The notes below the pieces were generated by a model. It had not been told where the DNA came from, made no database searches, and worked only from the letters and a program-made list of their open reading frames with translations. The position numbers and the translations under genes are program-made. Positions 6,982 to 62,900 of a stretch of 64,000 nucleotides of DNA are shown here, one piece after another. The DNA comes from Azolla caroliniana (taxonomy: Eukaryota > Plantae > Polypodiophyta), in NCBI GenBank assembly GCA_043228905.1, contig JBHGNT010000001.1, positions 35,092,001 through 35,156,000 on the forward strand, written 5' to 3'. Positions within the stretch are counted from its first letter, which is position 1; each line of letters starts with the position of its first letter.

Positions 6982-8363
6982 TACCAATCTTTGTAAAGTT
7001 GAGGTTATTCTTTAAAGGTTTTATTCAGCTACAATTGGGTAGTTTCCTTGTGGTTCTTGTTCTATTGATTAATGGAGTGATCAATTATTTGTGAAGGTGA
7101 GGTGAGATCACAGCACATAGAGGATCCAGAGTCACTTTGCCCAATTCTACAATCGGTTCTATTTAGCAATTATCTATGGCTACTCCCATTCCTGAATGCC
7201 AAGTTAATTCTTGTTGTAAGTGTTTGTAAGCTTTCGAAATACACGAGCTTTATACAAATGCCGGGTGTTTTGACACTTGGACCTTTGCTCCAGAAAGTTT
7301 TGCTCTTTGGTAGTAATATGAGAAATGCCACCACTCCTAAATGATGTGTTAGAAATATGGGTTGTAAAGGGCATTAATTTAAAATTACACGCGTTGCTTA
7401 GGAAAAACAATTCGATTAGGTCATCAAACAATTCTTATATCCAGACTATCACAAGAGTAATATAAATATGTCACTAACATTGATGATAACAAAAGATCAT
7501 TAGATTAGTGAATTGGCTGTAGACTCTTCATATATATATATATATAGTACATTCTTATTATCTCCTATGACAAGGCAAATGAAGGCTCCTTTCAAAGAAC
7601 AATCCAAATGTCCCAATTAATGCTCTATTCAGTTTTTTATTTCATCAAAAGAGTTGAAGCTTATGCAGTCCTCTATCCTTAGTTAGAACCATATATTAAT
7701 GTAATAGAGTTTAAAGTTGATACAACCCTAGATCAACAAACGCTTCTATTGGTTACAACCCAAAATCAACTTCTTTATTGCATCATCTATTGTTACTATC
7801 CTCCTTGTTCTTTAGTATTGTTTATCTTGATCCAACCTTGAATTCTTTTCTTACATCTCCATAGTTTTCCAAGTTAAGTTTGCATTATTTAAATTCCCCC
7901 CTCCTCCACATATACCCCAACCGCTACTAATAAAGATCACAAACAATACGCTTTGAGGGAATCATAAAGTTCATTAATTGTATTTCATGTTGTGGATTGG
8001 GAGGCCTTGGAGCTTAGATGGTATAAAGTGCGTAGTGCATGCGCCTATACATCTACTTTGAGGTACATATATCCCCCCCCAAGGAGTCTATGTAGGAGAC
8101 AAGCCACATTGGTACAATATGCAAGGCCGTACGGAAATGTATGTTGAATCTATACATATTTGTTTGTTTGTTTGTATCTTTGATTGGGTGTAGTTTTGGG
8201 AGTTTTCTTCATGTATACAGAAATATGTTCAAAGATGGAAAGCAGGATTTGAGCCCACGACCTTGGAGGTGTTGGTTGTACCCTGCTCAAGAGAGAGCAG
8301 GACCTTCACTTACCATCGGAATTACAATCGACAAAAGAAAAACAGAGACGCCGCCGGAGGGTC

Positions 8364-8680
8364 GATCTGTTTGTTGATACCTCAGCTTCTGAGACAGAGA
8401 GTCCATCGATCTGTTTGTCGATACCTCAGCTTCTGAGACAGAGAGTCCATCGATCTGTTTGTTGATTCCCCAGCTTCTGAGACAGAGAATCGATCGATCT
8501 GTTTGTTGATTCCTCAGCCTCTGAGACAGAGAATCGATCGATCTGTTTGTTGAGTCCTCAGCTTCTGAGACAGAGAATCGATCGATCTGTTTGTTGATTC
8601 CTCAGCCTCTGAGACTGAGAATCGATCGATCTGTTTGTTGATTCCTCAGCTTCTGAGACAGAGAATCGATCGATCTGTTT
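8364..8680. repeat. Minisatellite, 44 bp unit, 7 full copies plus a partial copy
   Basis: Unit GATCTGTTTGTTGATTCCTCAGCTTCTGAGACAGAGAATCGATC starts at 8364, 8408, 8452, 8496, 8540, 8584, 8628 and 8672. Confidence 0.95.
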
Positions 8681-15224: not shown

Positions 15225-15586
15225 TAATTACAAGGTAGATAGAAGACACCCCATCCCTTTCATGATTTTGGGCACATGTCGAGAAGGAAAAGAAGTTTTC
15301 CAATTGTTGTACAAAACTTAGCTAATGTATGGTCGAAGACAACATTACATTGTAGCATCTAGGCTCTTTGACAACATAGATTTGGAGTTTGATGTATGTC
15401 TCTAATTACAGGGTAGATAGAAGACATCCCCCATCCCTTTCATGAATTTGGGCACATGTCGAGAAGGAATAGAAGTTTTCGAATTGTTGTACAAAACTTA
15501 GCTAATGTATGGTCGAAGACAACATTACATTGTAGCATCTAGGCTCTTTGACAACATAGATTTGGAGTTTGGTGTATGTCTCTAAT
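15225..15586. repeat. ~178 bp tandem duplication, 2 copies
   Basis: TAATTACARGGTAGATAGAAGACA...GGAGTTTGRTGTATGTCTC at 15225 and 15403, near identical. Confidence 0.95.
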
Positions 15587-19200: not shown

Positions 19201-22200
19201 AAGTTGATTACATGAACTCAAGGATGTTAGAAATACATATGTTGATCCCATAATGATGCAATTGAATCATAAGGAACTTTTAATGATGAAGATGGTGAAT
19301 AGTGGAATGGGATCATGAATGTATTATTCGATGGAGCATGTGTGACATTAAGAAACAGAGTTTTATTCGTAAAACAAGTGACTAAAAAATTATACAGATG
19401 CTATGGATTAACATAATTAAAATAGGGGCATTTTCAATTGAGTTTGATCAATGAGAATGAAGATGTTATGAAAGTGATGAATATTGAGATGCGAACGATG
19501 ATAAATAATACAATATAATAGTGAATTTCATATTGCTCCATAAAACAATATAATTCAACCTCAAAATTTCAAGCACTATTAGACTCAATCATGCGATGCT
19601 TTTGCGTTCTTGATCCGTATATAATTCACTTTTACAAAATAAGCGAGGATTATCAATAGAGTAGTATGCGTAGACATTGAGTTTCTCTTTAGGGGTTTTT
19701 GGAAACCCACTTTTTACACATTGCTTGCACACGAAAGCATGCAATAATAACGTAGCTTTGGACCATGTAAGAAAAGGATGCCTCTACTTGTAAAATAAAC
19801 AGGTTTTATCTAGGCCTTGAGTTCACATGATACGATGGGTTTGTGCGAGGTGCCATTATCTCCCCTTCAATTTGAGCATTTGAATAGATATATAATATAC
19901 AATTAGTCATGTTCATGCAATGTACCTTGCAATTTACAATGTGTTTGTTCCTCCATATGTCCTCCTTTTTTGTAAAGATATACATACATGAGATAGAAAA
20001 AAGTGTGATTTGACTTCTACTAGACATACATATGCTGAAATATCTTAGCTATTCACATTCACATGTTCAAGATATGTATGCCAACAACCTTTGTTGACCT
20101 TTCGATAGTCTTGATGGGAATAAAGCAACACTTATCACTAGTAAATTCAATCCCACCCAAAATATATCCTTGCTTAATGTGAATGGAAGGTTCATTTTTT
20201 TTGTTCGTGTCACTACTGGTAAAGGTTTCATGATGGACACGAATCCTTCGTTGAAAAGAGATATCCGATTATTTGTAGGAAATATACCTCAAGGAAGTTG
20301 CGTGGAAGATAAAAACAACATTGCCAGCGACATGTTACTAAGAAGCAAGGGGACCTATGTGAAAGTAATGTCACGTTCATTTTGCAAGTGATTAACTAAT
20401 ATAATCTGGTAACATGTGTTGGATATTAGAGTATGTTGACCTACGAAGCACCATCTAAGTGATAGAAATATGCATGGTGCATTATGATCACATAAAGGCT
20501 TAACATTCCACATCATTGTAACCTATTGACAATGCTAATATTGTCGGCACTCGTGCTCTTGGGTTTTTGCACCTTTACCACTGGTTGTTCAATGTCTAAG
20601 AGTTGTACGAACAAGATCTAATTATGATGTGGAGTTTTCCATGCATAATTATATTTGTGTCACGTTCATTTATGCATCATGGTTACAACGATATTTTGTG
20701 CACAAATTTGGTTTAACACATTAAACTTAATATGAGTGACTTGGTGAGTGTTGAATTATGGTTTGGAATAGGTATAAAGTAGAGCAATGTCGGTATGTAT
20801 GCATTGAGCAACATTATTCTTTTGGATTGTAAGAAACCGGAGGATGTGGAAATAAAAGAAAAAGGCAACTTCTCTAGCAGTGTAGCCCGATTGCCGAGTC
20901 TTGACTAATCGACATATCGTAGAAGGAACCGATATTTGACTTGTTGGCATATTGTAGAAGGACTAATGTTTGGGGCAGAGGAGATAGTTGCGGGTGTCCA
21001 CGAAAGAAAACTCTTTGTTCGAAGTTTTTTTCGGAGGTTGCATAATGGCTAGAAAGCGTAAAGCATATATATAGATGAAGAAGGGAACGGAAATGTGCAG
21101 AATCGGCGTTAGATGCTGGTGTACGTAATTGTTCTCGCAATTTCGTTAGTAATTGTCATGGGCAGGAAGATGGACGGACACAAGGGGACCGGGCGGAAGA
21201 GGGATGAGAGAAGCAAGAAAAAGGTAATGGATTGGGTGGTAAACAAGAAGAGGGGGCAGGGTGTGATTATGTATGTATGGATTGGAGAGGTATTTTAACA
21301 TAAAAACAAAGGAAACACAGAAAGAAAGGGGGTGGTGGAAGAAGCGTGTGAAAGGCCTCTTAGGAGGGAGGCGCCACGTCAGCACTTGTGCAGTTCATAT
21401 CTCAACAGGATATATATGATTTTTATGCGGAGGACCGACGAGACCCCCCCCCCCCTTTTAAAATAATAATAATTTGTCATTATTATTAATATAATCAAAC
21501 TGCTCAGGAATAAAATAAAAAACCAATCAATAAATATGAAAAGAAATAAAAAAAAAACCTCACTTTTTAAATTTTTTTATCCATCCGAAAAAATTCAGAG
21601 TATCTCAACAATATAAAAGAAAATCGAATTTATTGTTTTGCTTTTTTATTTTTATTGGGGTTCATTTTTCCGTGGTTAAAAGAAAAAGCAAAAAGCAAAA
21701 AAAAATAAAAAATGAAGGAGCGTCTGATTTCCAATTCCGTAAAATTTGAACGATTAAAAAGAGTGTGAAAAGACGAAAGAAATAAAATAACAAAGAAAAA
21801 AAAAACAAACAAACAAACAAAAAGAAACCAAAATTTGAAAGAGAAAATTAGATATTTTGTTTTATAATCTTTAGGTGCGAATTACGTGAAAATTACAGGA
21901 TATCCGCAGATTTACATTTCTTTTAATTCCTTTTCAGCGTCGATTTTATTTATTTAATTTCTAGTTTCTTCTTCTTCTTCTTCTTTCTTATGTAATTTGA
22001 AATCCTTTCGTTTTGCTCCATTTTTCTTGAGAGGTGTAATAAATTGTAATCTTCTTCTCTGCGAAGAGACTGAATCAGGAAGAAGAAAAAACATTTTTTT
22101 CTGCAGACACATGATGGATCCAGCACCTCAGTCAGACGCAGAGTTTAATAATGAAGTGACTGTGAAGACAGAGAGAGAAGAAGAAGAAGAACCGAAATCC

Positions 22201-22298
22201 AAACATGTGCACAAAAAAACCCTACTGTTGTAGCCTCATTCATCTCTCCTTTTGGTTTAATAACCCCCCTCATAGCAACAACCATCAGCACACCAACA

Positions 22299-23620
22299 TC
22301 AGAATTTGAAGATCTCCATGGAACCTCGCTGCCTTTGAACTGTAGCAGATGTAGCTCCCAAAACACCACATTTACTTGGCCTTTTTCTAAAGAAGCATGA
22401 AGAGCTTCTTTTTTTGAAGGTTTGATTTTTGGTTCCCACTGTAGCAGATGCACCAGAAAGGTTCAGAACTTGAAGATCTCAGTAGCTTTTTTCATAACTG
22501 TGCAGGAAAAGCCGGAAGAAATCTCAGAAGACATTAAAAGAAAAAGGATGTGATGAGACTATTTGTCAGAATTGGAAGATCTCCGTAGCGTTTGAACTTT
22601 CGCAACCAGAAGAAGAAGAAGAAGAAACAAGAGAAGTAACATTAAAGCAGACGAACGTATATGTATAATTTTCAGAAGAATTTGAAGATCCCAATAGTTT
22701 TGTTTTGTAACTTTAGTTGATGTAGCAGAAACATCATTAAAGGAGGAGGTTTTCAATGTATTTGTTGAGAATTTGAAGGTCTTCATAGCACCAACATTAA
22801 AATTGACGTGAACTAAAGAAGATATCCATTGCAGCTGATTTCAACTGTAGCAGAGGTGATTGTCGTAGCAGCAAACTACATTAGAAGAATAGAAAGTATC
22901 AATATATATGGTCAGGGGAATCGGATCAAGTTGTCTATAGCTAGATTTAACTGTAGCAGCAAATACAGCATTAAAACCGAGTTTGAGATTCGCTCAGTAG
23001 AATTTGAGGAATTCCATGGCATCTAACTGTAGTTGATGTATTTGGCAAAACTACATTAAAATAGAAGGAGAGGATCTGCATAGCTTTTTATCTGTAGAAG
23101 ACGTACCAGCACAAACAACGACTACAACAGAGATGGTAGAGATCGTTATCAAAGTAAAGAGGTTTCTATAGCGTGTTTTTTATGACTGTGGCAGAAATTG
23201 TAGCGGATGGCGTAAGCAACCGCCACTAAAGGAAAACACGATCTAAATCTCCATTGATGCTTATACTTACTGTAAAGGAATGGAACTGGGATTGAGTTGC
23301 AGTAGGAGTGGTTAAAAAGCAAACAGCAAGAGAAGGAGAAAGAGAAATACAGGAGATCTTATAATAATTCAAAGAAAAATGACTTTCCATGGCTTCTTCT
23401 TTCAGACGAAACCAGAAGGAACGGGGGCAATCTGTTCGATCAGAAGAAAATCTCCATCGCTGATTTAGCTTCAATCTCTTTCTTACATAGCAGAAGCGGC
23501 CAAGAAACCAGGAGTTGCAGTAAGAAGGGGGGGCTTATCTTGCTAATTGAATCATTTAAACTGTAACAGTGTACTAATAGGCGACAAGGAATTGCTGTCA
23601 GAAGGGAAAATTTTCCATTG
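22299..23620. repeat. Degenerate motif array: about 12-14 units of TCAGAATTTGAAGATCTCCATAGC..AACTGTAGCAG..ACATTAAA with divergent spacers
   Basis: Motif A at ~22299, 22463, 22566, 22672, 22768, 22817, 22912, 22994, 23062, 23149, 23243, 23440 and 23598. Motifs B and C follow in the same order in most units. Confidence 0.8.
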
Positions 23621-23999
23621 CTAAGAGTATCAGAAGGAAAACTGGTTTACATATGTAAAGAAGGAAGGTGGCCTCTGTCGCAACGAATACATTCAAAGTA
23701 ATTATAAGCCAAGCTTCGTCAGGTGTCCCCATAGCCAAACTCATTATCGGAATGAGCAAGGCAGAGAAAACAAGATAGCAAGAACTAGGCACAGAAAACA
23801 AAGCGCCGAAGGCAAGACAGAGAAGATAAGACAGACGAATGCGGAGAGGAGAAAAAATTTGTTAATGCATATCTACCTCCATCCATATATTCTCTGATCC
23901 GGTATTACGGACATGGCCAATTCAATTCTGAGATGAGGCAGGCAGACTAAATTCGAGCTTTGAAAAACAGAAAAGAAAGCTTGGTTCTCTGTGAGTTTT

Positions 24000-24078
24000 C
24001 ATCTCTCTCTCTCTCTCTCTCTCCCCCTCTCTCTCTCTGCTTTTAACACTTGTTCCTCTCTCTGTGGATCTATATTCT

Positions 24079-24117
<39 letters not shown>

Positions 24118-24212
24118 CCCCTAGCCCCTCCTTTATCTCCTTCATACGCTTCTTGTGAAAATTCTTGCTCTCCTTTTTCACTCCATCTCTTTCTCTTTCT
24201 CTCTCTCTCTCA
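24000..24212. repeat. (CT)n microsatellites in the probable 5' leader/promoter of the HHO gene
   Basis: Several CT dinucleotide tracts. Confidence 0.85.
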
Positions 24213-24872
24213 GCACTGTGACAAAATATTCCAAACTTTATTCCTTCCTTCGTCTTGTTAACTTCTTTTTCTGCTGCTGCTTCTTGACTTGGACTGATCT
24301 TCAGGACATATATAGTTAGCTTCTCTCATTGTTTATTCTAATTTCGTGAGAAGCAGGCATTAATTCAGCAGAAATTAACATCAGACAGTGTGGAAATGAT
24401 GGTGGGCAGATGAAAATTCTCATTAGTGCCATCGTTATTCTTAGTTTTCTCCTTCTTCTTCACTTTCATTAGTAATCTTAGACTTCTTTTTTCTCCTCAT
24501 TACTTCCACCAGAAATCGTAGTGTTCTTATTCTTCTTCATTACTTACACCATTCATTAATCTAAGTGTTCGTATTCTTCCATTTTACTTCTACCATTCTC
24601 TTCTTCTTCTTCCTTATTCCTATTAATATTAATTTCTTCTAGGTAATCCTTTCACATTCATCATCACTATCTTTTTCTTCACATCCACCGTTATCCTTTG
24701 TCACTTTCACCTTCATCTGTTGGTGCTCTTCTTACCCCGATGTACAGCCAACCTTTTCTGATCCAAGCTGAAAGTTTGTGTATCTGGGAGGAGAAGAGCG
24801 AGCGCTGACCCTATTATAACAAGTTAATATATCTTCTTCCTCCTCCTGAAGGAACTGACGATTACGAGGGCA

Positions 24873-27800
24873 ATGGGATCTCCCACAACCTTAGTTCTGG
24901 AATGCAGGAGGCCATCTGCTGCTTATACTGCTACTACTTCCACAACTAATTCTGGCTGCAGATCATCAAACTTTACTTATGATCACCATAACATTGACGA
25001 TGATGATCAAGGCAAACAAATTCACAGAATTGAAGAGTATTTAAATGCTCTGGAAGAAGAGCGAAGAAAGATCGAAGTTTTTAAGCGAGAGCTTCCCTTA
25101 TGTATGCAGCTATTGCAAGATGGTAATGAGCTAGTATGCTTAAATTTGAAAAATCAAAGTGATTTAAATGCTTATTTTCTTGTTGGTTATCTAGTAGTGT
25201 ATATGCGTATTTTACTTGCTTAAGTAAATAAAGGTAAACACACAGACACACATATTTTATTAGAAATGAGAATGGTGCTTAAAATCGAGCTATCGGAGTT
25301 CCAGATTTTTCCAGTTTGGCAGTTAAATGATGGTTATCTAGTAATGTGTGTAAACACACACATATGTGTGTGTGTGTATATGTATATATATATACACACG
25401 CCTATATTCCTCACGGTGAATATGTTTTAATTTGGTTAGAAATAGGAAGGCGTGTTTTTAAAATGGGTATAATTATAGCGATCTATGTGTGTTCAATGAT
25501 TTGATTGGAAATGGGAGTGTCTGATTCACTGCACGTCTTTGATTTCTATTTACTTCTGCAGCTATTCAATCTTACAAAGAAAGGCTTTGTTTCTATAAGC
25601 CTGCTGGGCCTATCACAAAGGCCAAGGAACCTAACCACCATGATCAGAGTGTGATTAAGGATGCTATCGTGCTTGAAGAGTGCACACAGATGAAGATTAT
25701 TAAGCCTGCTGATGGTTCTTACACAGATCAAACTGCAGAAGAGAAGAACATTTGCAAGCCAACCATTAGCTGGATGAAAGTAGATTGTATTGATATGCAA
25801 AGAGAAGTCAATAGCAAAGAAGTAAGTATATCAGTGTTTATTTGCAAATATATGGTTCTTCTTGTGCAACTCTATGATGCCCAAAATACGAAAAAATTAC
25901 AAATTTGAGATTGTTTTATGCTCTATTTATATTGTTGATCGATTATGGTTACTCTTTTGCTCAATTGTTGTAATTTTAACCTTGTGCTAATCTTCCTCAG
26001 TAACTAGTTTTAATTAGGATTTAATAATCATATGTCAGTTGAAGAGGCTTCATTGGAATTAGTGGCATTTTCAGAATCAGGTTAAACTAGAGGGGAAGGA
26101 GTTTTCCTTTTTGATGATGTGCCCTATAAAACAATGTTCATTCTTCTCGTTTATCATGCAGATGTGTAAATCAGATTTAACAATAAGAAAGAATTATGGG
26201 CTACAATGTGTGCAAGAACAAGCCTTTAGCACTTCCTCAAAGCCATTTTTCCACTCCAAGAACAAGTCAGGGGGAGCATTTATGCCTTTTAATAGAGACA
26301 AGTTGCAAGCTGTTGTGCAACCGAGGGCAAGACCTGGAGCACTCAATCCATCAGATCTCGCATTCACACCATCAGACGCCAAAGTTTATTGTAATAGCTC
26401 CACTAATAGCAATTGCAATAATTTGTCGCTCTCTGAGAGCCCTCCTCCTCCCTCATCATCATTGCTCAAACTGATGAAAATCAAGCCAAAAGTAGAGAAT
26501 AACGTTAAGGAGTTGATTGAGTTTAAGCAGACAAGTATGAAAGGAACTGATGGCTCAAATGGTACCTCAATCCCTCGAAAAGCTCGGCGATGTTGGTCGC
26601 CAGAGCTGCATCATCGCTTTGTGAATGCATTGCATCAACTTGGAGGCCCTCAAGGTATGCCAATTGATGATGATGAATTTGTAATGTCTTTACGAAGGTC
26701 TTTGCCTATGAATTTTCTGCATTGATTGTAGGGATAAACATTGAAATATTCAAGTTTTCAAAACTTACCTGTCTATCCCCTGTAGTGAAAAATTTAATTG
26801 TACAGGGGTATCCCCACTGCCATGTTGTCAATGCATTGCATCAGATTGGTGGCCCTCGGGTACGATTATGAAACATTCGGTCTACAGGATGTATGTATAG
26901 ATATGTCTCTGGCAAACAGCAAAATACGCCACCCCTAACTTGCATATTTACCAGAATACCTGTTAGGGTGTGATGATATGATGCCTTCTATTTGGTACAT
27001 ACGTTCTTTCACATTTTTGCATTGATTATTGCATCCATTTAGATGTCCTGAGTATATGATGATGATATGATCCCTGCAATCCGATTCATGATGTGCACAT
27101 TTTCTTCACCTTTCCGTTTGCATAGATTGTATAATGGTTTTTCATGTAATTGGGTCTTTGTTCTTCACAGTGGCAACTCCGAAGCAGATCAGGGAATTGA
27201 TGAAGGTGGAGGGGCTTACAAATGATGAAGTGAAGAGTCATCTTCAGGTAAAAAAAACACTATACTGAATAGTTTTTGAAAACTTTTTAAAACAAAAAAA
27301 AATGTCTCTTTGGAAACAATATTCTGATATACTGGACATGTAAATCAATATGTTTCATGGGCGGATAGAAATCTAATGGGTTCGAACGCCTCCGGAGTAT
27401 CAGGAATGCTAAATTATGCCTTGTTCTCCCATTTGTGAAAATTACAGAAATACAGATTGCATACAAGGAGGCCTAGTCCATCCCCGGCTGTATCTGCCCA
27501 CACACCGCAAGTGGTCTTGGTAGGAGGAATATGGGTGCCTCCAGAGTATGCTTTACACAATTCTACACATAATTCAATACAGAATGCAATAGATCAATCC
27601 CCTGCTTTGTATAGTGTTTCACGACCAAATGCATATCAAACTCCAGCTACTTCAACATCTCAAGAGATGTGTTCGCAGCTTGAGTCACCGGAACAAATCA
27701 ATCTACAATACTGTTCCTCAGCTCCAGCTCATTCGCAAAACTCTCTGAGAGGCCCTACTATGAGAAACAATGGTCAATCTTCTTTAGTAGTATATGCACA

Positions 27801-28053
27801 TTCGGACGATGTTGTTGGTAGAGAAGAAAGTGTTGGTGATGATGATGATGAAAATTCTAGCTATAAGGGTTTATATATTAATGAAGCTACTAGAGTTCGG
27901 CAGAATGGGGCACATGTGGATATGGAGAATGAGGATAGAAGCCACACCGAGAGCATCAATGCGAATCGATCACATTGCACGAGTGACGATGACTCAGATA
28001 CAGAAATTGAAGATAGACGGGATTGTGACGGAACAAGTTTGGAGTTATCTTAA
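24873..28053 (+). CDS. GARP/G2-like MYB transcription factor of the HRS1/HHO (NIGT1/EFM) family, 5 exons
   Basis: Exons 24873-25122, 25562-25821, 26162-26654, 27171-27247, 27448-28053. Motifs [87 protein letters not shown] and VGGIWVP. Confidence 0.95.
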
Positions 28054-29343
28054 CATTTTGGAAAAGTTATGTGTTCACCACTCTATCCATATGCAATTCA
28101 CTGCAAGAACAACTCGATCTTTGGGAATCAAGGAAAAATGTAGCCACATAGTTTTGGGAAAGATGACAAAGTTGCAAAACATGAGATGAGATAATCTGAA
28201 GTTTGGACTTAGCTTTGAAGCCAACCTTTGGCTAAGGATGATTGGTTCTACATTTTGTTTCTAAAAATTCTTATATAAGAGATAGGTACCTGACACTGTT
28301 ATATCAAATTGTATATTTGTTTTCTTGGGGTGGTGGGGGTTGCTGGGGGCAGGATTGTAAAATGACCATCGTCTCTAAAAGATGAAAAGGGAAATGAGTA
28401 TCCAATAATGTATTTTACATCGAATAGAGGTTTAAATTTTTGTTAAAACATCATAGTTAAAGAAGTGTGTTATGTCCTAATGTTGTCTGTAAATGGTCCA
28501 TAACTAGAAGCCAACTAGGCTGGAACAGCTAAGGCTTGTCACAATGAACAGAAAGGAAGCCTTTCTTCAATGAGTTGCTCAAGACGTGGAGTGTGAAGCC
28601 TATTATTATTTTGTTTTTTGATGGAGGAACTACAAATTATGAACAACTTAGGGAACATATGAAGTTTAAAATTGAAACATGAAGAGACATGACATTTACA
28701 AATTTAGTATCTACCTCATTTCAAGCTGCAACACTCTTGTTATCACTTTTAGGTTTTTGTTAACAAAATTGTTTCTATGTATTGCTAGTTTGAGATCATG
28801 CACGCTAATATTTCAATAACACTATTCTAGTTAAAATGAGGCTTTACAAAAGACTGAGAATAATCAAGAATGATATTTTACAAATTCAATTTCCACAACC
28901 CAAGAATTGAAATCACCTAGTTTGTTCATCGATCCAACATTTGATATATGTCCATGGCATTGATTGTGGACCTATCATCAATTCCACATTATATGAGTGA
29001 AAAGTGAAGACGAGAACACCATGTTTTGTACCATATCTCGTCTAACATACTTTGTGGATGACTACAAGTCAATTGTTTGCCTTGCACATTACATGTGTGA
29101 GAACAAATACAAAATCATCATTTCAATCAAACTTTACACTTGGAAAGATGACTTTAAAAATTTAGTGTTTCATTTTATAAAACATCCATCCTTCTTGTAA
29201 GAGATCATGTGCACATATATTTCAATATTATACTTACCTTAAATAGTGCATGTTCAATTGATTGAAAATGACAAGTTGAGCTTGTGCTAAGGTATGGGTA
29301 TAAACAATGATTAATGATAATGTATGGTTTTATATCTCTACTT

Positions 29344-29457
29344 GAGCATATTATATATATATGTTCATCAATATTATAGTCGAGCATATTATATATATAT
29401 GTTCATCAATATTATAGTCGAGCATATTATATATATATGTTCATCAATAGTATAGTC
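29344..29457. repeat. 38 bp tandem repeat, 3 copies
   Basis: GAGCATATTATATATATATGTTCATCAATATTATAGTC at 29344, 29382 and 29420. Confidence 0.95.
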
Positions 29458-59983: not shown

Positions 59984-62900
59984 ATGAATCCAACATTAAC
60001 CTGGCCTTGCTTAAGGTCCCTCCATCACCATTACCACCAAACCTCCTCCACTTTCAACTTGAGCAAACACAGGTTCAGGTCTGTGCTTGGCAGAACAGGG
60101 GAAGCAAGTTCAAGAACAGGTGGAGGGAGAACAAGAACAGGGGAAGGAATAAGAGGAAACTTCTCGGTAGTAATGGGAGGTCCTTCTTCTTCTTCTGTCT
60201 CCAATGAAGGAGATCTCACCCTCGACAATAGCAACATCAATATAAGTGACAGTGATAATAGAAGCATTGGCGCGCATGCATTTCTTTCTGGAGTCATGCC
60301 AAAGAAAGAGATAGGAGTGGAGCGATTCCTAGCTGCCCATCCCGAGTATGATGGAAGAGGCATACTCATTGCTATTTTTGGTATGATCTATCTCTTTCTC
60401 TCTGTTTGTACGTGTCCATATGCATAGACGTGAATGTGTGGTATGGAAGTAATGTGATTTGATAGATCAATGCAAGCCTGTGCCGTCAAATGTGCTTCTT
60501 TATATATCAACAGAAAGCTATCTATTTGCAAATATGTACATGCATGAATGTATGGTATGGAAATAATGTGATTTGATAGATCAATGCAAATTGTGTGGAA
60601 TCAAATGTGCTTCTATAGATATATCAACAGAGAGTTGTCTATTTGCATATATGTATATGCATGAATGTGACCATATGGGGCTTCAATAGATCACTATATT
60701 TGGATTGTGTACATCCCTGAATGTATAAGGCCCAGTGCTTCAAACGGATACCATATTTAAGATGATGGAAATTGCAAGGACCATGGACATATGGCGTACA
60801 AATAGAGGACAATGTTCCTATCCAAGAAGTGGGGGTATGCATATATTCCTGAATTGTGGAGGCACAGTTATTTGAAAGTTTACCATGTCTATGATAGAAA
60901 TTGTACTGATCATGGTCATAACACGTACAAGTATGGGTTTGATGATGGGACAATGTTCCTATCCAAGCAATGGAGATGCTTGACTAAGTACAAGAGGTCC
61001 TGGGGTCAAGTCTCAGTAAAATTCCATGTGCCCTATAGTAAAATTCTCGTTATAATGAAACTGGTATTTATGGCAGATTACTACGATGGGTTTAGGTTTC
61101 AGGGATGAGCATAGCTTCCATGAAAAATATCAACTTTTTGTCATTGGTAAAATTGATTAATCATTTCCGGCCATTTCTAGTGTTGCGGGGTCATATTGCA
61201 CATTTCCAGTCAGCAAAAAAATAAAATAATTTGATATTTTTTTGAATTCCCTTAGGTGGATGCTAGTGACAATTGTTAGGCAAAGTGCTGAATAAGAAGG
61301 ATGTAAGACTCCAACCCTGTGTGTAAGATAGATTGTATCACTCAATACAGAGGCTATGATGTAGGATATTCCTATATTTCCTCCTTTTCTATTCCAAAAA
61401 CCCAGGTGGCCAATATGTGGGTGATCTAGGTGGTGAGAATGGCAAGGTGTCAACTAGGTGGCCAACCTATGCGGTGCAAATGACACTAGCTAATAGGCTC
61501 ATTATAGCTGGAGTACCTAGGTACATCTAGAACTGTGTTTCTTGCTCTGGACATGCTTAGTAGGTCTATGGTAAGGTGGCAAATCAACATCTACTTTTCC
61601 TGGTTTTCTTACAAGAAACTGCGTATCAGAGTGTGGGATTCAGGAATCATAGCTCAGCTTCATCATTATGGTATCTAAACTGTTAACCAACACAATGATA
61701 GGGCACTTGTTGGCAGAAACTGCAACTCACTTTGAAGCAAATGCCACTTCGGCCCAATATTTCTCTCCAAGAGCTGAGGCATATGTCGCTAGTTGCGTTG
61801 ATTCCACTAAGGTGCCACTAGCAATGTAGTGTTGACATGAAGCTGAAATTTGTTTTGGAAAGTGCTTTCTTATTGCATTCCCCTTTTTCTTTGTTTATGA
61901 AATTCTTCTTATTCTTTTATTTATTTATTTCTATATCAGACTCTGGAGTAGATCCAGCTGCAGCTGGGCTACAAATAACATCGGATGGTAAACCAAAATT
62001 CGTAGATATTTTGGACTGGTATGTTCCTAGATTGCTATTAGTTCAAATCTGATCTATATATCATTTAAAATAGGGTTAATTATATGTATGTATATCTTCT
62101 GTTAATTTACAGCACAGGTAGTGGGGATGTTGATACTTCTACTGTAGTGAAAGCAGATGATGATGGATACATCAAAGGTGCCTCAGGTATTGAAAAAGTT
62201 ATTGCACATGCTAGTCTCCTTCTTATTATTTTAATATGCTTCAAATTATTCTGTTTGTAGTTTGCTAAAACATAATACTCTTATTGTGAGCTTCAGCTAT
62301 GATATTAGTAATCATAACTGCTTGTAGGTACATTATATAGGCATCATGGTATTTTTTGTTGGTGTTGATGCTCATTGTGAGAGATTTCATTGTATTGTAG
62401 GTGCTCGTTTACAATTAAATCCCACATGGAAAAATCCTACAGGGGAATGGCATATTGGATATAAGCTAGCTTATGAACTGTTCACTGAGACACTCGTGTC
62501 TCGTTTAAAGGTGACAATCTCATCTCTGCTATATTAATTCGTGTGGTTGTGCATGAGTAATGCAATCAAATTTGAGATGTATTTCAGTATTGATTGTTCT
62601 CGTTAGCTGCAAAATTTACAGTTACCTCTTTGGAGACTTAACACCTGCAAAATAATAGTTTTGCATCGTCAGTCGAATGTGCTATCGGAATAACTCAAAG
62701 GGCTCCTCCCTCCTATACTATAGGAAAATGCATCTCTATGTCTATGGATGGCACTTTGATAATGTTTTCTTTTTGCCCCAGCATGAAGGCTTCTTCTTAT
62801 CAACTCAAAATGGAATCTTTTACCTAGTTGTATTTCCACAACCATAATTTCAAGACAGATTTAACAAAAAATGGAAAATCATGAACTGTGATGAAGACTT

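Follow-up and report, generated by a model that had tools for sequence, protein, structure and literature searches.

What is repeated, and for which strand, in an array of short motifs that lies upstream of a nutrient-signalling gene? We have examined this question in a 64,000-nucleotide stretch of the fern Azolla caroliniana (GenBank assembly GCA_043228905.1, contig JBHGNT010000001.1, positions 35,092,001 to 35,156,000 of the forward strand), hereafter the window, in which three motifs—A, B and C—recur at 22299-23650 ahead of a gene of the HHO/NIGT1 type. The array is an old amplified module at a single locus; it is transcribed, conserved within its lineage, and oddly built. The reading we prefer, tentatively and at a little short of an even chance, is that it belongs to a minus-strand non-coding RNA directed away from HHO, in which it would form a bank of alternative cassettes—each a splice acceptor followed by a miniature open reading frame (mini-ORF)—with a likely regulatory role.

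The array and its minus-strand layout

The array contains 14 copies of A, 15 of B and about 10 of C. An earlier reading made from the letters alone (the sequence-only reading) had given the motifs a fixed order; both positions and order are confirmed, the latter being A-B-C on the plus strand. The motif words all lie on one strand and far exceed the numbers expected from the rest of the window (CTGTAGCAG, four against 0.00; ACTGTAG, five against 0.06; CATTAAA, six against 0.22; TCAGAA, eight against 0.53). One copy that it gave as a consensus B, at 23025, reads AACTGTAGTTG. The regularity it described is broken at unit 5, which has no B and is absent or rearranged in relatives, and the spacers are not wholly beyond alignment as it had supposed: they retain faint homology, and a sub-repeat, GTAGC..AAAC, is still recognizable in the B–C spacer (excess alignment score of 0.098 per base). 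The array is not reported by the program TRF.

On the minus strand the units run in the order TTTAATG, a pyrimidine-leaning spacer, CTACAG/TT (the slash marks the predicted exon boundary), 8-23 A-rich bases, and then GCNATGGAGATCTTCAAATTCTGA. Motif C, as TTTAATG, is branch-point-like and contains an ATG; motif B, as CTACAG/TT, is a predicted 3' splice acceptor; and motif A, as GCNATGGA...TGA, is a candidate strong start that would open a frame of 3-10 codons for MEIFKF-like peptides. This layout—the end of an intron, then a start codon—is one reading that covers all three motifs, their order, and their spacing. The sequence-only reading missed the acceptor-like and branch-point-like character of B and C on this strand; its suggestion of a micro-peptide locus holds insofar as the array is transcribed and A forms a start-to-stop mini-ORF, on a strand that it did not name.

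The individual motifs agree with these assignments. All 13 scored B motifs have the AG, preceded by C or A alone (three distal copies were positioned by their AG), as do 12 of 12 in a MAFFT alignment, and the asymmetry of B favours the AG of the minus strand (A11 C9 A13 G13 T10 T10 against C9 T8 G5). A YTRAY word lies 21-46 nt upstream of nine of the 15 B acceptors, compared with 15 of 51 other minus-strand AGs. The columns of motif A, out of 13, are G10 C13 N6 A13 T11 G9 G12 A12, and the start of the HHO gene itself, GCAATGG, has the same context. Strong-context ATGs number five on the minus strand of the array against 1.1 in shuffles (P=0.004) and two on the plus strand against 2.4, in a test that is not independent of the repetition.

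A mini-ORF of 3-10 codons is found in 11 of the 14 units (MEIFKF, MEFLKFY, MEIFF, MENFPF and others). The ATG of A is intact in nine of 14, the others reading ACG, ATA, ATT or ACT, and its state flips among relatives. In the four units that lack an A start in all sequences seen, an in-frame start triplet at C is open, as in none of six others (p=0.005; the test is post hoc, and p becomes 0.024 if unit 3 is counted as lost and 0.033-0.083 if ATG alone counts). An orthologue of the array is present in L064, one of 47 metagenome loci with a shared 18-mer, of which the other 46 are chance matches; it covers two of these C-start frames, in units 2 and 4, and both are open, that of unit 2 by way of compensating indels.

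A BLAST search of the 523-Mb genome found the array once, and a genome-wide search with a sequence-derived model returned ten matches in the array and seven weak single matches elsewhere (among the best 150 of 222377 candidates). The left flank is unique apart from one 40-nt match, and the right flank has matches elsewhere through CT repeats alone. Because the array is single-copy and its flanks are not repeated, it is neither a transposon end nor a satellite; a transposon subterminal or satellite repeat would be expected in many genomic copies inside a repeated element. The statement that no long ORF or transposon explains the region stands. No support was found for microRNA (miRNA), small nucleolar RNA (snoRNA), transposon or satellite identities. 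A long protein repeat was rejected, since the unit spacings are not multiples of three and the frames close; the longer frames of the array gave no Pfam match above the cut-off, a 105-codon minus-strand frame having a sub-cut-off match to DUF5698 only.

RNA and possible splicing on both strands

RNA contigs cover the array in seven of the eight runs examined, of 14 listed, and come from five organism labels; X7 has no array contig. No run is on record as RNA. X1, X2, X3 and X13 behave as RNA, since their contigs skip the HHO introns and leave 19500-21500 uncovered; X5, X8 and X11 were aligned on 21300-24300 alone, and their RNA nature is a guess. Contigs carry no strand, and rare junctions are dropped from them.

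One contig of X13 joins 22497 to 23877 and skips 1379 nt (22498..23876) with CT..AC ends, which corresponds to a minus-strand GT-AG intron from a donor at 23877/23876 (ATGGAG/GTAGAT) to the unit 2 acceptor. The joint is carried by this single contig at a depth of 3.85, with 30 letters on its short side. Unit 2 had been read as an acceptor before the joint was seen, exactly at 22497/22498, and the unspliced X13 contig stops at 23906, 30 letters inside the exon, as a true graph branch would. The first exon of the minus-strand RNA is placed at 23877..23990 (with a provisional 5' end, since contigs break at the CT repeats); ATGGAG precedes the donor GTAGAT, and its three ATGs are in phases 2, 1 and 0. 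A shared 5' exon spliced to a downstream cassette is thus present, in that contig, and homologous tandem cassettes each with an acceptor of its own are present at the sequence level.

The units, all given on the minus strand and with peptides that end at a stop codon unless noted, differ in what they retain. Unit 1 (22299..22375) has an acceptor at 22340, an ATG and MEIFKF, and 22284-22365, about 80 nt across it, is identical in the orthologue; an extra B (22437..22447) is acceptor-like on the minus strand (22439) and is a plus-strand acceptor in run X3. Unit 2 (22463..22538), with the used acceptor at 22498, has an A start decayed to ACT and a frame open from the ATG of C to the stop of A (MSSEISSGFSCTVMKKATEIFKF), which is in frame in the orthologue. 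Unit 3 (22566..22646) has an AAG acceptor at 22597 and EIFQF behind a start that is ACG here and in the orthologue and ATG in X2 and X3. Unit 4 (22672..22741) has an AAG acceptor at 22711 (CAG in the orthologue), ATT at A, and an in-frame ATG in C (MMFLLHQLKLQNKTIGIFKFF). Unit 5 (22766..22801) is the copy with A and C only, and unit 6 (22814..22885) has a CTAAT branch-like site, an acceptor at 22845 and MDIFFSSRQF. Unit 7 (22912..22975; acceptor 22951) reads ATA at A and has an in-frame ATG in C (MLYLLLQLNLAIDNLIRFP), and unit 8 (22994..23060; acceptor 23027) has MEFLKFY.

The remaining units are as follows. Unit 9 (23066..23131; acceptor 23092) has an ATG and has lost its stop (36 codons); unit 10 (23149..23230; acceptor 23186) has ATA at A and an in-frame GTG in C; and unit 11 (23241..23278) has MEI and an acceptor at 23270 that overlaps a GTAAGT donor-like word. 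Unit 12 (23369..23407) has an AAG acceptor-like site at 23399 and an ATG in a shifted frame (54 codons), and unit 13 (23440..23477) a weak AAG acceptor-like site at 23469 and MEIFF. A lone B (23559..23569), acceptor-like at 23561, and unit 15 (23598..23650), acceptor-like at 23642 with MENFPF and the best duplex with the HHO start region, complete the array.

In X2, X3 and X5 a joint steps back 102 letters (23540-23641), one end of it being the first base past the unit 15 acceptor; the X5 record of this joint is 132 letters, that is, 102 plus 30. It is most likely a tandem duplication in relatives and may be a back-splice; the window has GATAAG, not GTAAG, at the would-be donor.

The arrangement recalls the 3' variable-exon loci of Drosophila, of which PGRP-LC is reportedly one. 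Another, mod(mdg4), has a shared 5' part and tandem homologous 3' exons (PMC13490949). As in these two, a common 5' part would here be spliced to any one of a tandem series of 3' exons that have acceptors of their own; unlike here, their exons encode protein domains, and mod(mdg4) trans-splices from separate promoters. The Azolla cassettes measure about 100 nt, with a frame of 3-10 codons at most units, so the protein-domain exon of such loci is absent, and one acceptor is seen in use.

Two other systems share part of these features. The pri/tarsal-less polycistronic micropeptide RNA encodes peptides of 11-32 aa with a motif conserved across insects (PMC11475943); like it, the Azolla locus would yield a transcript of some 1.5 kb in which small ORFs recur and a long one is absent, if the minus strand is the main one, whereas the peptides are mostly 3-10 aa and variable at nearly every position, starts are lost, and each lies behind an acceptor. 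COOLAIR, at Arabidopsis FLC, is an opposite-strand non-coding RNA that starts at the 3' end of the gene and overlaps it (PMC3988885). The Azolla locus similarly has, in one contig, a spliced opposite-strand non-coding RNA at a transcription-factor locus, and acceptor use could set output; unlike COOLAIR, the RNA would start near the 5' end of the gene and run away from it with a repeated bank of acceptors, and its function is putative. The intron and the array are located 1.0-2.6 kb ahead of the HHO ATG, and the gene-body overlap from the 3' end that marks COOLAIR is not seen.

Both strands are probably transcribed, the signs for the plus strand being no less plain than those for the minus, and an explanation on the plus strand has to be considered. 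In this alternative, which we regard as distinctly unlikely, a plus-strand RNA would run from a P1BS block (about 21950) through the array, either as a long HHO leader or as a separate RNA; the 14 A motifs would base-pair with the HHO start codon, to which they are antisense, and so restrain its translation, and long-leader transcription would dampen the proximal promoter. One X3 contig skips 22351..22447, a possible T-rich plus-strand GT-AG intron of 97 nt that is read through in X1, X5 and X11 and is present, more diverged, in the orthologue (12.8% against 6.3%, p=0.034), and one X11 contig spans 23634, the CT repeats and the HHO leader. Upstream, a conserved block at 21861..21945 (+) with an ACGT core and a P1BS element (GGATATCC at 21898) differs from the orthologue at 5 of 83 positions, compared with 15-17% in the flanks, and keeps the P1BS; it is a predicted plus-strand promoter or distal HHO element. 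In Arabidopsis, PHR1 drives NIGT1 genes via P1BS (PMC5893545). Conservation rises at TTTCTGCAG/22107, an acceptor-like plus-strand site, directly behind which lies an acidic 40-codon plus-strand ORF (22111..22233); its frame is kept in the orthologue with an earlier stop, and no homologue was found (one search was limited to 22-70 aa).

The pairing itself is suggestive in some scans and not in others. The region of the HHO start codon (24870..24884, +) shows partial complementarity to motif A in its plus-strand form; of 1100 windows at 23700-28100, the one at this start pairs best on average with the 14 A motifs. With GCAATGG held fixed, P is 0.009 for duplex energy and 0.012-0.068 for a gapped profile, although the pairing was found by eye, post hoc, and the gap rule was chosen after the match was seen and then retested. 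Without the gap, the site ranks just 128-259 of about 319,000; the duplexes, at -10 to -19 kcal/mol, are interrupted by mismatches and by a bulge that is conserved; a coarser scan of the 64 kb ranks at least ten other windows higher; and B and C are left unexplained. Whole-unit homology to the HHO start region is absent (P=0.65; B plus C rank 1025 of 8196), and an origin by inverted duplication of that region is not supported beyond motif A.

Two kinds of known RNA share features with the locus, the first of them fitting this plus-strand alternative. Long undecoded transcript isoforms reportedly combine a distal promoter with a long, ATG-rich leader upstream of a gene; they are like the plus-strand RNA in this and unlike it in that they do not call for repeats. 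Target mimics of the IPS1/At4 family have a P1BS in the promoter and short ORFs only. Both of these features appear to be present here, with the P1BS at 21898 kept in the orthologue; a mimic would also pair with a known miRNA around a central bulge, and no matching miRNA text or precursor was found in the searches given below.

Conservation and competing explanations

The sequence-only reading had claimed that motifs are retained in preference to spacers. An anchored neutral simulation agrees: none of 1247 runs had spacers as diverged as those observed, and the motifs outlast the spacers (indels were included and the three best windows picked post hoc; gene conversion and microsatellite replacement were not modelled). 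A first version, with some motif coordinates misplaced, gave 19 of 633. In run X5 the differences fall on 8 of 308 positions in motifs and on 23 of 372 in spacers (p=0.019, among the differences listed; the difference at 23121 was scored as motif in these cross-run tests, though it is spacer). Compared with the orthologue, 22107-22741 differs at 6.3% of positions against 15-17% in the flanks and is two- to threefold better kept (p about 1e-4).

A considerable body of observations weighs against the minus-strand cassette reading. A cruder, MAFFT-based simulation was not significant (73 and 38 of 143). In units 1-4 the orthologue and the window differ at 14 of 186 motif (7.5%) and 18 of 254 spacer (7.1%) positions (p=0.64); uniform divergence, one of the results that the sequence-only reading had named as refuting it, is thus what that comparison shows. 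Among the differences listed, those common to X2 and X3 give p=0.39 and the pooled runs 17 of 527 motif against 35 of 794 spacer positions (p=0.17). The C of unit 4 in the orthologue is without the branch-like T, and AG exclusion upstream of B is not significant (7 against 8.7, P=0.31). Within codons 2-4 there are 19 replacement changes to 11 synonymous ones (p from 0.02 to 0.19, depending on the transition bias assumed), and relatives have 1-nt indels in the frames of units 7 and 8; in view of these changes and frameshifts the peptide is probably not conserved, and the peptides look incidental. One acceptor of 15 is seen in use, in one contig from one of eight runs, and most contigs cross the array unspliced (for example X8, 22841-23991). 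Of 18 CAGs on the minus strand of the array, 11 belong to B motifs; a junction that falls on B is therefore no rarity by chance, and the joint shows that B can act as an acceptor, not that it was selected to do so. In X11 a stretch of 60 letters that includes the donor gives way to 66 different ones. The plus-strand signs—the 22351-22447 intron, the P1BS block, the step at 22107, and the X11 contig that reaches the HHO leader—also belong here.

Many of these points would be expected of a neutral or relaxed relic, an explanation we consider unlikely though deserving of weight. In it, a 100-bp piece in which an intron end and a start codon lay by chance was amplified in tandem long ago; the product is now transcribed from both sides as a by-product or leader, and the B motifs are cryptic acceptors on either strand. 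The equal substitution rates against the orthologue, the pooled test and the MAFFT simulation favour it, as do the decay of starts and frames, unit-sized gains and losses among relatives, and the single splice seen. It accounts less well for the anchored simulation, for the better-kept 22107-22741, for the identity across unit 1, for the compensatory in-frame starts, and for a possible unit at a paralogue (below).

The retention of motifs against spacers in the anchored simulation would also suit a DNA enhancer with repeated transcription-factor sites for HHO, the transcripts then being enhancer RNA. The array lies 1.2-2.6 kb upstream of the HHO ATG, and motifs A and B come close to being palindromes. 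CAGTT(A/G), a MYB-type core, is found in several B motifs, and TAATG in C would likewise suit an enhancer. The sites expected of such a homotypic enhancer for NIGT1 and PHR1 are not clustered: GAATC/GATTC occurs three times in 1.35 kb (the window rate is 2.17 per kb), and GAATATTC and P1BS do not occur in the array. GAATC and GAATATTC are the NIGT1 sites given in PMC8395448. A perfect AGATCT is present in just three A motifs, the best-kept part of A being GCNATGGA; the pattern of conservation leans to one side and lacks dyad symmetry, and at the position where a MYB core requires C, B also accepts A. We therefore find this earlier proposal weak, and an enhancer improbable.

Very little weight is given to a polycistronic small-RNA precursor, a target mimic, or a plus-strand bank of poly(A) signals (UGUA ... 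AUUAAA ... CA). Motif A is about 24 nt long, and in several units the TCA of the following A comes 17-27 nt after an ATTAAA; A may bear a loose likeness to miR172 and miR399 sites. No Rfam family reaches its gathering score in the window, the seven weak matches in 21500-24500 (E 0.13-8.7) being far below it and the one in the array itself a chance match (E 4.4); there is no consensus fold, and unit hairpins have z of -2.4 to +2.2. The small-RNA locus of the sequence-only reading consequently finds no support, and a polycistronic miRNA or snoRNA cluster was rejected, there being no hairpin precursors, no C/D or H/ACA boxes, and no known family. Genome-wide matches with two mismatches are near the control (24 outside the array against 13), and 16 such loci pair with the 19-mer over 7-18 bases. 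Matching words are absent from the searchable text of four supplementary files of an Azolla small-RNA paper (PMC8386757, whose picture tables are invisible to a search), and nothing on this locus was found there. Contigs run through the array, and the poly(A) reading leaves GCNATGGA unexplained.

The HHO gene, its paralogues and a possible function

The gene downstream of the array runs from 24873 to about 28050 (+) and, as the sequence-only reading held, is a nutrient-signalling gene of the HHO/NIGT1 type; it has a Myb fragment (below cut-off) and HHO5_N look-alikes at 0.84-0.87 (a lead), and its introns are confirmed by RNA. Its leader, at 24820-24873, includes TTAAT and a pyrimidine tract, with a CTGAAG whose last base is 24851, and an X1 contig begins exactly at 24852; an acceptor absent from the annotation may thus lie 21 nt ahead of the HHO ATG, although no joint is listed for it. 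In related runs intron 1 (25122-25564) uses an acceptor at either 25561 or 25564, an alternative of the NAGNAG type over three bases. Intron 3 contains, at 26720-26870, a stretch resembling a partial exon duplication, in which the last part of the Myb exon recurs (caatgcattgcatcagattggtggccctc, near 26830).

Other repeats were seen in passing. The sole other match of the left flank (L029 1430-1540; G000:C11:10798630-10798669) is 40 nt at 90% to 22050-22089, of low complexity, in the 5' leader of a DnaJ/zuotin-like gene (named by eye), and tandem units of about 52 nt with GCCCCCCAAATTTCTGG lie upstream of that gene (L029 270-600). Within the window, near-identical ordinary tandem repeats occur at 8362-8680 (44 nt), 15225-15586 (180), 29344-29457 (38) and 60431-60668 (117).

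A single unit-like match, acceptor plus ATG (G000:C5:593983-594028, minus strand; L026 6484-6529), lies in antisense orientation some 0.95 kb ahead of another HHO paralogue. It is full-length at 17.3 bits, among the best 150 candidates, and reads AAAG/T..ATGGAAATT like unit 11; its genome-wide E is 2.3, and given its position p is about 0.01-0.02 by Markov background (three hits in 6 Mb). That match excepted, no arrays were found in ten loci, 79 kb in all, around seven other GARP genes. Such a unit would fit a two-strand switch, which we think quite improbable: a cassette bank derived from an ancestral unit kept at another HHO paralogue, together with 14 antisense-to-start copies on the opposite strand. 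Splice choice would then set the first tiny frame met by the ribosome and the lifetime of the RNA, at a nitrogen and phosphate regulator in a nitrogen-fixing fern.

Under the minus-strand cassette reading, a shared first exon would splice to any of up to 15 acceptors, and each isoform would place a different mini-ORF first and leave fewer behind, the unspliced RNA presumably being a chain of short frames. The copies would be redundant and turning over, their starts flipping between ATG, ACG and ATA among relatives. HHO output would be tuned in cis by co-transcriptional splicing beside the promoter and by ribosome-coupled RNA decay, not by peptides, and this is the least certain step. We infer the use of many acceptors, translation, ribosome-coupled decay and the cis effect on HHO.

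Tandem banks of alternative 3' exons have been described for protein genes of animals; no plant non-coding bank with start codons, nor any such array, was found in the literature searched (most subscription journals lie outside its scope). If the reading is real, splice acceptors and start codons would themselves be amplifiable as a regulatory module, and the Azolla locus would offer a compact test of how splicing and translation of a promoter-proximal RNA may control its neighbour, here an NIGT1/HHO-type regulator of nitrogen and phosphate uptake.

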